Positions 16,590-42,554 of a stretch of 42,554 bases of DNA are shown here, in pieces. Below the pieces are notes generated by a model. It was not told the origin of the DNA and did not search any database. It saw nothing but the letters and a program-made list of their open reading frames with translations. Both the position numbers and the translations under genes were made by a program. The stretch is from Candidatus Hermodarchaeota archaeon. GTDB lineage: Archaea; Asgardarchaeota; Lokiarchaeia; Sigyniarchaeales; SOKP01. The stretch lies in contig JBHLLP010000030.1 in NCBI GenBank assembly GCA_048885525.1, positions 1-42,554 of the forward strand, given 5' to 3'. How positions within the stretch are numbered: the first letter of the stretch is position 1; each line of letters starts with the position of its first letter.

Positions 16590-17489
16590 TTATAGGCTAA
16601 AAAGACTATTTTTAACGTAATTTTTTAATTCAATTAGAGCTGTTTTAATATTTTTCCTTCCATACAAATTCTCGAGTTCTTTATATATTGTGGTTAATGT
16701 ACGATCCAACTTGTTATCCTCTTCATAAATCCGATTAATTTTGAGGTTTTTCTCAAAGACTTCATTAAAAATGTTCATTAAATTAAATTTTGTCACCGTA
16801 TTATTAGGTAAAAAATGATGGACATGAGAGATTTTAATTAATTTCTCAAAACTATTTGTTTCAATAATTTTTTCACATAGCTGAGCAAACTGAAGAGTTG
16901 TTACTCCGTTCCAAAGATGATGATCAAAACCATTAATAGTGCCCCCATTAGGCTGATTTAGGAACCATTCAAGTAAAAAAGTAACTTCCTTTTTAAACTC
17001 AGGGCCTATAATTGAAGATCTAATAATCAATGTAGTATTATCAAATACCTCTCCTAAACTTTTTGACTTTCCATAGACATCTAATGGATCATGAGCATCA
17101 TTTTCAGTATATCCTCCACTTTTTCCTGAATAAACACAATCAGTACCTATTTGGATTACTTTAATATGGTGTTTATTTGCATACTTTGCCAATTCCCATG
17201 GGAAGTCAGCATTTATTTTAATAGCACGAATAACACCTTCTGGATCATCGTCTTTAGAGAATGGTTTTGTAATTCCAATGCAATTAATAATATATTCAAT
17301 AGATAAATCATGAAATTTTTTATTTTCTAATTGAGATATATCATAAGCATCAAAAATGAATATGTTTTTGTTTAAATATTTCGAATTCCTCACAGTTCCA
17401 TATACATTAAAACTTTTGTTTTTTGAAAGATAATCAAAAACCATGGCGCCAAGCATTCCACTAACTCCAAGAACAAGTATATTAGTTAT
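16590..17489 (-). CDS. RmlD-family NDP-4-keto-6-deoxyhexose reductase, probable ATA start
   Basis: INCIGIT, GTDCVYSG, YGKSK, RSSIIGPE, WNGVTTL. The GxxGxxG motif (LGVSGMLG) begins upstream of ATG 17456; frame is open to ATA 17489, closed by in-frame TAA, with SD GAGGTGA just upstream. Confidence 0.85.
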   Translation of the reverse strand: MTNILVLGVSGMLGAMVFDYLSKNKSFNVYGTVRNSKYLNKNIFIFDAYDISQLENKKFHDLSIEYIINCIGITKPFSKDDDPEGVIRAIKINADFPWELAKYANKHHIKVIQIGTDCVYSGKSGGYTENDAHDPLDVYGKSKSLGEVFDNTTLIIRSSIIGPEFKKEVTFLLEWFLNQPNGGTINGFDHHLWNGVTTLQFAQLCEKIIETNSFEKLIKISHVHHFLPNNTVTKFNLMNIFNEVFEKNLKINRIYEEDNKLDRTLTTIYKELENLYGRKNIKTALIELKNYVKNSLFSL

Positions 17490-38827: not shown

Positions 38828-39271
38828 TTAAAGTGCTTCTCGAATAGAAGTAGAGCTAATTTTATTTTGTCTTTTATCCTTTATAAGTGGAATGACAATT
38901 AAAATAAGGGGTTTCAATCCTATTTTCTCTCGATTTTCATTTAATTTCAAGGCATTTTCATAGGTCTCCTGACTTACCACTAATCCTTCATATTCAGGAT
39001 CTTGAGCGTATTTATCCATATCCGACCAATCTTTTATTTCAACAATGTTAATGCGTTTTAAATCGGCTAAGGAGCTAAGAAAATTTTTCAAATTCTCTTC
39101 TCTAGTTTTATAATCCTCTAACTTTAAGGGATATTGTTTACTTTTCAGTAAATCTTGAGAGGTTAGTCCTATCTCTACAAATTCAGAAATAGATAAAGCT
39201 GTTCTCAATAAAAATTTATGTCCTTCATGAAGATGATCAAAAGTACCCCCTAATCCAATTTTTTTGAGAAT
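38828..39271 (-). CDS. coaD: Phosphopantetheine adenylyltransferase, archaeal/eukaryote type, probable ATT start
   Basis: GLGGTFDHLHEGH (HxGH) lies upstream of the TTG at 39208; also GLTS, LVVSQET, N..R...GL.PL, KISSTSIR. No in-frame ATG/GTG/TTG upstream before a TAG; ATT 39271 is 8 nt after AGGTAGGTG. Confidence 0.88.
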   Translation of the reverse strand: MLKKIGLGGTFDHLHEGHKFLLRTALSISEFVEIGLTSQDLLKSKQYPLKLEDYKTREENLKNFLSSLADLKRINIVEIKDWSDMDKYAQDPEYEGLVVSQETYENALKLNENREKIGLKPLILIVIPLIKDKRQNKISSTSIREAL

Positions 39272-39312
39272 TTGAAAAACACCTACCTTGCAAAAATTAA
39301 TATTAATCTAAT

Positions 39313-39747
39313 TTAACCTTTGACTTTTACACTTTCTTTCTTACTTTCCTGTTCCTTATTCTTTTCGGTAGGACTTTTCAATCTTACAGAGTATATTTGC
39401 TTTATCTCCATTAAGTCCTCACACTTTTCGCACTTATCTTTCCTCTTAAAGACAAAATCTCCTTTTTCATAATTTCTAACCTTTGTAAGTCCACATAATT
39501 TACAGATTAGAATTGTTAGAGTTTGTCTTATGGGTTCAGCAGGACTTTTTTGGAATTGAATTAATGTAGCCCCAAAACAAATTAATATAAAACCAATTGA
39601 CCAACTTGAGATTTGATCGGGTCCAAAATCAAGATAAATGAATAGAACTCCAACAACTATTAATATAATAAACAAAATGTTTTTTAAAATGCTTTTAAAA
39701 GTTATTCTTTTTTTTAATATTTCCTCATCGTCTTCTTCTTCAATCAT
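39313..39747 (-). CDS. Small membrane protein with C-terminal zinc ribbon
   Basis: Two hydrophobic helices, then CKLC...R.Y..GD.V...CEKC. Confidence 0.75.
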   Translation of the reverse strand: MIEEEDDEEILKKRITFKSILKNILFIILIVVGVLFIYLDFGPDQISSWSIGFILICFGATLIQFQKSPAEPIRQTLTILICKLCGLTKVRNYEKGDFVFKRKDKCEKCEDLMEIKQIYSVRLKSPTEKNKEQESKKESVKVKG

Positions 39748-41005: not shown

Positions 41006-41225
41006 ATTCTACAGTTTTTTTAACGAATTTTCTTATCTTTTCAAATCATTTTAATTATTTTTTTTTATGATCTTTAAACATGAAAGCAAATAGCAAAAAT
41101 TAGTTCATAAGAAAAATAGAAATGATTTTATAATTAAGGGAATACAATTAATTAATTAATTTATTTAATTAAATGAACCTTAAAATAGACAATTAAGTTA
41201 AAATTATAATTGAGGTGTAAAGATT

Positions 41226-42554
41226 ATTTACGGTTATATGGGAAAGATTCTAAGAGTGGATCTAACAAATGGAAAAATTAGTGAAGAATTTCCTGATGAA
41301 GAAACATTAAAACTGTACTTAGGTGGAGCGGGACTAGCTACAAAATATTTAATTGAAGAGGTACCAAAAGGAATAGATCCTTTAGGACCCAAAAATAAAT
41401 TAATTTTTATGACAGGACCATTAACAGGAACTCCATCACCTAGCACAGGGAGATATTGTGTTGTAGCAAAATCTCCACTTACGGGTATTTGGGGCGAAGC
41501 AAATTCAGCTGGTTTTTGGGGGCGAGATCTTAAAAGATCAGGATTTGATGGAGTAATTTTCGAAGGAGTATCTCCAAAACCGGTTTATCTTGTTACAGAA
41601 GATGGAAAAGCTGAACTTAAAGATGCTTCACATCTTTGGGGTAAGAATACTTCAGAAACAACTAGGATTATTAAAGAAGATCTAGGTGATAAATTTAATG
41701 TTTCTTGTATAGGTATTGCAGGCGAAAACCTAGTAAAATATGCTGCAGTTATGAATGATTGTGACAAACCAAATTATGGTAGAGCCGCGGGGAGATGTGG
41801 TATGGGTGCTGTAATGGGTTCTAAGAAAGTAAAAGCTATAGCTTCTAAAGGAAATGCTAAGATTGAAGTCGCAAATCCAGAGGAATATAAGGCTGAAGCA
41901 AAACAGAGATATGATTGGGTTAATGAAAGCTTATTGAAAATGACACTTGAAGTGTTCGGTACAGCAACTTTGGTAGATTTAGTGCAGGTAAAAGGTGGTT
42001 TACCAACCAGAAATTGGCAAACTGGAATTTTTGAGGGCGCAGAAAAAATAAGTGGAACCGCAATTAACGAAACTATTCTTACTGGCAGAAAAGCTTGCTT
42101 TGCATGTCCAATTGCTTGTGGACGTCTTGCTGAAATTAAAGAAGGTAAATATAAAAGCGAAGGAGAAGGACCAGAATATGAATCAATTGGATCTCTTGGT
42201 ACTATGTGTGGAGTTGATAATTTGGAGGCTATTACTTTAGCCCATTTCCTTTGCAATGAATATGGGCTTGATACAATTTCAGCTGGAAATACAATGGGAT
42301 TTGCAATGGAATGCTTTGAAAAAGAGATATTAACTAAAGAACATACTGAAGGACTCGAGCTTAATTTTGGTGATGCTGATCTAATTATTGATCTTATTCC
42401 TAAAATAAGTAGAAGAGAAGGTGTTGGTGATTTACTCGCGGAAGGAACAAGAATAATGGCAGAAAAATTAGGAAAAGATTCTATTAAATTTGCAATGCAG
42501 GTTAAAGGTTTAGAACTTCCTGCATATGATAGTAGAGCTGCTAAGATCACAGGA
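41226..42554 (+). CDS. aor: Tungsten-dependent aldehyde:ferredoxin oxidoreductase family protein, 3'-truncated; absent from the ORF track
   Basis: Manual translation: YGYMGKILRVDLT, YLGGAG, DPLGP.N, KSPLTG, AGRCGMGAVMGSK, CFACPIAC, GPEYE, GLDTIS, VKGLELPAYD. Start is ATT 41226 (SD GAGGTG 8 nt upstream) or ATG 41238. Confidence 0.93.
   Translation, partial: MYGYMGKILRVDLTNGKISEEFPDEETLKLYLGGAGLATKYLIEEVPKGIDPLGPKNKLIFMTGPLTGTPSPSTGRYCVVAKSPLTGIWGEANSAGFWGRDLKRSGFDGVIFEGVSPKPVYLVTEDGKAELKDASHLWGKNTSETTRIIKEDLGDKFNVSCIGIAGENLVKYAAVMNDCDKPNYGRAAGRCGMGAVMGSKKVKAIASKGNAKIEVANPEEYKAEAKQRYDWVNESLLKMTLEVFGTATLVDLVQVKGGLPTRNWQTGIFEGAEKISGTAINETILTGRKACFACPIACGRLAEIKEGKYKSEGEGPEYESIGSLGTMCGVDNLEAITLAHFLCNEYGLDTISAGNTMGFAMECFEKEILTKEHTEGLELNFGDADLIIDLIPKISRREGVGDLLAEGTRIMAEKLGKDSIKFAMQVKGLELPAYDSRAAKITG

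Follow-up and report, generated by a model that had tools for sequence, protein, structure and literature searches.

How is a protein translated whose reading frame offers no ATG, GTG or TTG ahead of its catalytic residues? This question is raised by coaD, a gene on the minus strand (38828..39271) of the 42,554-nucleotide stretch of DNA that was analysed here as a whole, henceforth called the window. The window comes from an uncultured archaeon of the Promethearchaeota (Loki-type Asgard), and phosphopantetheine adenylyltransferase (PPAT), the predicted product of coaD, is an essential enzyme of the CoA pathway. In the initial annotation an AUU codon was put forward as the start.

The coaD gene and its product

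Read from ATT 39271 to TAA 38830-38828, coaD comprises 147 codons, and the resulting product of 147 aa (MLKKIGLGGTFDHLHEGH...) is close in length to the 148 aa of the solved PPAT 3do8. The product scores 131.8 bits (cut-off 104) against the NCBIfam model of the archaeal pantetheine-phosphate adenylyltransferase, NF001985, in an alignment that starts one residue past the ATT and at model position 4, and 58.5 bits (1e-15, cut-off 21) against Pfam PF01467. The alignment with PDB 3do8_A (E 5.7e-16) spans chain residues 2-137, with chain residue 2 placed 3 residues after ATT 39271, and reaches ISSTSIR (38840..38860, minus strand; residues 138-144), a C-terminal motif of the nucleotidyltransferase fold which aligns with ISSTRIK of 3do8. 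The nucleotide-binding and catalytic motif GGTFDHLHEGH (39250-39218, minus strand, with HEGH at 39229-39218) occupies residues 8-18 counted from the ATT and is invariant among the coaD relatives, and the (T/H)xGH signature is accordingly found after strand beta-1. With family, length, the HxGH and ISxTxxR motifs and a full-length likeness to a solved enzyme in common with archaeal PPAT (CoaD, COG1019 type, NF001985, 3do8), coaD is by its sequence an archaeal-type PPAT gene, and adenylyl transfer to 4'-phosphopantetheine is predicted for its product. A single copy was found in the genome, which is 99% complete, and coaD is the sole archaeal-type PPAT gene of the cell.

Upstream of coaD lies a co-directional ORF of 144 aa (39313..39747, minus strand) that is in another frame, has no Pfam family and stops 41 nt before the ATT. 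As the 3' end of this ORF can be recognised upstream of coaD in most relatives of the genus, coaD is probably an internal cistron, and the two genes are probably co-transcribed. In the 144-aa product the N-terminal half is hydrophobic, and the tail carries the pattern CxxC...CxxC. Other neighbours of coaD are a DUF1512 gene and pheS/pheT.

The start region of coaD

On the minus strand, the 5' part of the coaD frame reads TAG(39310-39308) ATT AAT ATT AAT TTT TGC AAG GTA GGT GTT TTT CAA ATT(39271) and continues from there with CTC AAA AAA ATT GGA TTA GGG GGT ACT TTT GAT CAT CTT CAT GAA GGA CAT AAA TTT TTA TTG(39208). This direct reading bears out, with exact coordinates, the earlier statement that the frame contains no NTG start back to a TAG: between the closing TAG (39308..39310) and the TTG at 39206..39208 there are 33 codons and none of them is ATG, GTG or TTG. 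The TTG is thus the first canonical start, yet it follows the ATT at a distance of 21 codons and lies past HxGH, so that GGTFDHLHEGH is indeed located upstream of it, and the ORF of 126 aa that it opens would code for a product lacking both strand beta-1 and HxGH. Hence, no canonical start is available between the upstream stop and the indispensable N-terminal residues, and the same holds for the relatives within the genus.

The putative initiation codon, ATT 39269..39271, is preceded by the Shine-Dalgarno (SD) sequence AGGTAGGTG at 39280..39288, with the core AGGTG at 39284-39280 and a spacer of 8 nt (39279-39272), positions which agree with those given in the initial annotation. The 3' end of the 16S rRNA of this genome, ...GGATCACCTCCT, pairs with AGGTG over 5 bp. 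The SD therefore matches the cell's own 16S rRNA at the spacing of ATG genes, which peaks at 7-8; within the genome optimum of 5-8, the 8 nt found in coaD represent the long end. A second in-frame ATT, at codon 5 (39257..39259), is where the database protein of the window, P0001, begins, and was rejected as the start for the reasons given below.

Conservation of the putative start codon

In all 19 genomes of the genus with a coaD orthologue (56-84% identity) the homologous codon is ATT. It is preceded at 8 nt by GGTG, replaced once by GGAGG and once by GGGGG, and an in-frame stop lies 0-12 codons before it, directly abutting it in five cases. Apart from an ATG right before GGTFD in two of them, none of these 19 orthologues has an NTG ahead of GGTFDHLHEGH.

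The comparison was extended to 80 loci from public genomes, in which the codon scored was the one 7 positions before GG. In a clade of 58 genomes (96% support) this codon is ATT in 47, ATG in 9, ATA in 1 and GTG in 1, with no others, meaning that every variant in the start column is ATG itself or one base away from it. Most genomes have in-frame stops 0-5 codons upstream, and these abut the ATT in at least eight orthologues. In more distant genera coaD starts at an ATG, GTG or TTG further upstream. A coaD tree computed without the start region contains a subclade of 31 genomes with 100% support in which all 31 have ATT, as well as two smaller clades, of 8 and 5 rows, that are entirely ATT. ATG is found in basal or scattered positions, and at least five changes of state are needed.

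Within the 31-genome subclade, only 3 of the 52 columns that are invariant in amino acid keep a single codon. The other 49 vary synonymously, and at six further conserved Ile positions ATT, ATA and ATC occur side by side. Since the start ATT is fixed where other Ile columns vary, its third base is constrained in a way that is not that of an ordinary Ile codon. Of the 47 ATT genes, 43 have an SD of 4 nt or more at a spacing of 6-8, and the remaining four carry GGGGG there; of the nine coaD genes that start with ATG, seven have no SD. The SD thus arises together with the weak codon, and coaD illustrates clearly how ribosome binding site and start codon may evolve in compensation for one another.

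Taken together, the conservation of the codon in its nucleotides, its homology to ATG and GTG starts in sister lineages, the stops that abut it and the fixed spacing of the SD uphold the proposal of an AUU start. On this comparative evidence, coaD is very probably translated from the SD-positioned AUU 39271, read by Met-tRNAi. This start sets the gene apart from archaeal PPAT genes elsewhere, which begin with ATG, GTG or TTG in the other genera of the order and with ATG in the ATG lineages of the 58-genome clade. In 12 of the 47 ATT orthologues codon 7 is an ATG (G-M-GGTFD), and a second, shorter product may be made there; this does not apply to the present genome, which has TTA as codon 7.

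Companion genes in the window

Two further genes of the window confirm, beside coaD, the earlier count of three genes in 42 kb that pair a strong SD with AUH (AUU, AUA or AUC). The first, coding for an RmlD-like reductase, has an ATA start at 17487..17489 (minus strand) with the SD GAGGTGA at 17501-17495 and a TAA directly before the ATA. Its orthologues have ATA, ATT, ATG, GTG and once ACG at the start codon, with GAGGT about 7 nt upstream. GGAGG(T)-N7-8-ATT is seen in two distant paralogues, of which one belongs to a different family of the order. In the orthologue with ACG (L069, G011:C145) the SD contains an in-frame TTG, three codons before the ACG, and translation may start either at the ACG or at a shifted position.

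The second gene, aor (aldehyde:ferredoxin oxidoreductase), starts at ATT 41226..41228 on the plus strand, 8 nt after the SD GAGGTG (41212-41217). This ATT is invariant in 17 orthologues (78-88% identity), all of which read TGA GGT GTA nnn nnn ATT TAC GGT TAT ATG, and the product, IYGYMGKILRVDL, has the N-terminus typical of the family; paralogues of aor start with ATG. Altogether, six starts in the window have an SD of 5 nt or more, and three of these are AUH.

Candidate SD-led AUH starts across the genome

A genome-wide scan, as had been suggested together with the AUU start, was carried out on 3016 long stop-to-stop ORFs. The scan was confined to in-frame codons that precede the first NTG by 5 codons or more, and an SD was counted if it measured 5 nt or more and had an aligned spacing of 7-8; 15 other in-frame codons served as controls. 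Out-of-frame ATT was dropped as the main control, since any GGTGA at spacing 7 automatically creates an in-frame TGA 2 codons before the start. An SD precedes ATT in 30 of 1074, ATA in 17 of 826 and ATC in 6 of 261 instances, giving 53/2161 as compared to 35/8390 for the control codons (odds ratio 6.0, p = 4e-16, Fisher's exact test), and the spacing profile is that of genes with a first ATG, peaking at 7-8. The number of qualifying ORFs is 58, as against some 16 expected by chance. The composition of the 58 extensions is of the coding type, with G occupying codon position 1 at a frequency of 0.265, near the 0.283 of coding sequence and well above the 0.14 of open stretches without genes. These figures support the presence of an SD-plus-ATT/ATA/ATC signature in about 40-60 genes, corresponding to approximately 1.5% of the long ORFs and one in seven putative SD-led starts.

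With respect to SD length, a search for longer SDs before AUH than before ATG found none (mean 5.5 vs 5.4 nt, p = 0.35). The register differs, with a GGTG core in 72% of the AUH starts as opposed to 26% of the SD-led ATG starts; the SDs of ATG starts favour GTGAT, GAGGT and AGGAG.

The enrichment recurs in a second genome of the genus (0.8-Mb sample; odds ratio 3.3, p = 0.002), while in Ca. Harpocratesius repetitus, a genome from another family of the same order within the Promethearchaeota (Loki-type Asgard), it is weak and non-significant (1.2-Mb sample; odds ratio 1.9, p = 0.10). The earlier suggestion of SD-dependent AUH initiation as a common trait of the lineage is therefore supported within the genus, for this genome and its congener.

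Candidates from the scan include uL16 (ATA, AHKRPWRCY...; G000:C37:22697, plus strand), a second AOR (ATA; C22:10738, plus strand) and a GPN-loop GTPase (ATT; C16:32935, plus strand) besides other GTPases. Three paralogues at C24:28598 (minus strand) and C36:29049 and 29891 (plus strand) all have ATT-SIDW[AV]K.

Initiation factor aIF1 and the initiator tRNA

The aIF1 genes and the initiator tRNA, whose inspection the initial annotation had also recommended, were examined in the same genome. Neither of its two SUI1/aIF1 genes has a usable ATG, and both begin at AUH, one at ATT and the other at ATA. The main gene (G000:C32:32281-32595, minus strand, = L031:1477-1791) has no ATG, GTG or TTG before the Cys knuckle, its start region reading TAA GAC AGC ATT AAA GAT GAT GAA ATT TGT. 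The ATT is invariant in 22 of 22 genomes of the genus, where it stands behind AAGGTTGTGATAA (relatives L033-L062), and in other genera of the order the homologous codon is ATA, GTG or TTG, never ATG. The second paralogue (G000:C2:79571-79882, plus strand, = L032:1426-1740) is 63% identical and has a perfect GGAGGTGA followed after 8-9 nt by ATA AAA GAT GAG. A counterpart of this paralogue was seen only in G007 among the 41 genomes searched, and that copy has two TAA stops. In the closed genome G006 the aIF1 gene (L055, C1:1385113-1385367) is masked by N at its 5' end, start codon included. The arrangement of the aIF1 genes is compatible with, though no proof of, a feedback of the kind known for infC in bacteria and eIF1 in eukaryotes.

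The one initiator tRNA-Met found (G000:C32:9579-9689, plus strand) is canonical, with a CAU anticodon, A1:U72, GGG/CCC in the anticodon stem, an encoded CCA and a 32-nt intron. The detected tRNA set is incomplete, as ARAGORN found 34 and Rfam RF00005 24 tRNAs, together fewer than 35 in a 99%-complete genome, presumably due to introns. No AAU or UAU initiator-like tRNA was seen in this incomplete set, whose sole initiator-type tRNA is the CAU one, and a special initiator tRNA for AUH is not favoured here, though such a gene may have escaped detection.

Alternative explanations

Of the competing interpretations, the one that survives best assumes that the AUH starts are the outcome of a near-neutral decay of ATG under AT mutation pressure and lax start selection, and that the ATT of coaD is merely tolerated. 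The G + C content of the genome, 29%, the dozens of unrelated genes affected and the switching of the RmlD-like gene between ATA, ATT, ATG, GTG and ACG among close species would all be in keeping with such a process. However, the ATT of coaD, aor and aIF1 is never replaced by ATA, ATC or ATG across 31, 17 and 22 species, respectively, even though nearby synonymous sites vary, and this fixation amid synonymous turnover points to selection on the third base. Neutral decay is therefore unlikely, although it retains some plausibility, and it concerns the question of why the codon is kept and not of where translation starts.

Alternatively, coaD might have no initiation of its own and be produced from the 144-aa ORF by frameshift or readthrough, or exclusively by termination-reinitiation. 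In favour of this, the ORF runs in the same direction, terminates 41 nt ahead of the ATT and keeps its place beside coaD in most relatives. Yet it is read in another frame than coaD, and every genome has an in-frame stop between the two, abutting the ATT in at least eight, which leaves no room for a fusion; moreover, a conserved SD at a spacing typical of starts is what independent or coupled initiation predicts. This alternative is hence quite improbable. Reinitiation at the AUU is possible and would be a variant of the preferred SD-positioned AUU start, not a rival to it.

Even less can be said for a start at the second ATT, 39259, which would give a product of 143 aa beginning with MGLGGTFD... 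as in P0001 and for which it could be argued that 21 of the best 120 homologues likewise begin with MGL. Codon 5 reads GTT in 26 of the 47 ATT orthologues, GTA in 8, TTA in 6, ATT in 3, GTC in 2 and CTT in 1, and being mostly not ATT it cannot be a conserved start; its distance from the SD is 20 nt, beyond the 5-9 nt range of ATG genes, and residues 2-4 (L-K/N-K) are conserved as protein, which leaves this start with hardly any probability. Finally, that coaD starts at TTG 39208, whose 126-aa ORF is the only one reported by an ORF finder limited to ATG, GTG and TTG, or that it is a decaying pseudogene or an assembly error, is negligible, given that the TTG product would be without its strand beta-1 and HxGH while the protein sequence encoded by the 21 codons before it is conserved across 58 genomes, and that, as the initial annotation had expected in calling a pseudogene unlikely, the gene is intact and single-copy. 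Sequencing error was likewise dismissed, the same ATT and an intact frame being present in 19 genomes of the genus and in 47 of the 80 further loci, the latter all independent assemblies.

Probable initiation at AUU in relation to known systems

According to the mechanism that we propose, the coaD mRNA would be leadered, with coaD probably an internal cistron behind the 144-aa ORF. Pairing of AGGUG with the 3' end of the 16S rRNA would set the P site of the small subunit 8 nt downstream, where the ordinary initiator Met-tRNA (CAU) would accept the AUU despite the mismatch at the third position, the SD rendering a weak codon usable. The AUU would probably set a low rate of coaD translation, which may vary with the amount of aIF1, the fidelity factor.

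SD-led AUU starts are known in bacteria from the E. coli genes infC (coding for IF3) and pcnB, and NCBI table 11 includes ATT, ATC and ATA among its start codons. The coaD start resembles those of infC and pcnB in that a near-cognate AUU stands behind an SD, is putatively read by the initiator tRNA and is conserved among relatives, and in infC the efficiency of the AUU is governed by a factor for start codon fidelity, there IF3. The differences are that the machinery is here archaeal and eukaryote-like (aIF1, aIF1A, aIF2, aIF5B), that about 40-60 genes per genome appear to be concerned and not two, and that ATA and ATC are used as well. An autoregulated AUU start of the infC type, the autoregulation of which through IF3 is reviewed in PMC4705826, does not describe coaD, which codes for a PPAT and not for an initiation factor; it is the aIF1 genes that would fall under this heading.

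A parallel also exists in eukaryotes, where, in the account given by papers citing Ivanov et al. 2010 (PMC6237735, PMC4705826), eIF1 is autoregulated via an AUG in poor context. As in the case of eukaryotic eIF1 and eIF5, it would be the homologous factor, aIF1/eIF1, that sets the use of weak start sites. Unlike in eukaryotes, there is here no scanning and no Kozak context, the ribosome being positioned by the SD, and the feedback is inferred only.

Archaeal initiation has been described with AUG, GUG and UUG, and in vitro the aIF1 of Sulfolobus rejects AUU (reviewed in PMC4705826), so that the use of AUU in the present lineage would need either a relaxed stringency or compensation by the SD. 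In recent reviews SD sequences are considered to be rare in Lokiarchaea (PMC7531240, PMC12993045). In the literature searched, which included few subscription journals, no description of AUU, AUA or AUC starts in Asgard archaea or of a non-AUG aIF1 was found. It is tempting to go further and to suggest that the aIF1/aIF2 machinery of the genus treats SD-positioned AUU, AUA and AUC as regular starts, with aIF1 itself always non-AUG and the AUH set including coaD governed by the level of aIF1, but this must be regarded as a tentative and rather doubtful generalisation. Nonetheless, the combination of SD and AUU on essential genes and on aIF1 might provide a natural system for the stringency of the ancestor of eukaryotic start selection.

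Database annotation

Gene finders limited to ATG, GTG and TTG shorten, extend or miss PPAT and dozens of Asgard proteins, and such misannotated starts distort metabolic reconstructions as well as comparisons of N-termini with eukaryotic homologues. The claim in the initial annotation that gene callers systematically truncate these genes is correct in part. Among the best 120 database homologues of coaD, approximately 75 begin 4-6 residues late (with MGL, VGL, or M or L before GGTFD) and approximately 20 are extended upstream through chance NTGs, but 25 begin with MLKK[VI]GL, i.e. with the ATT read as Met. The protein of the window itself, P0001, is annotated with 143 aa from ATT 39259 and not from TTG 39208. 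The three MLKK[VI]GL entries that were checked are NCBI records, and the ATT start of coaD is thus already annotated in a part of GenBank.
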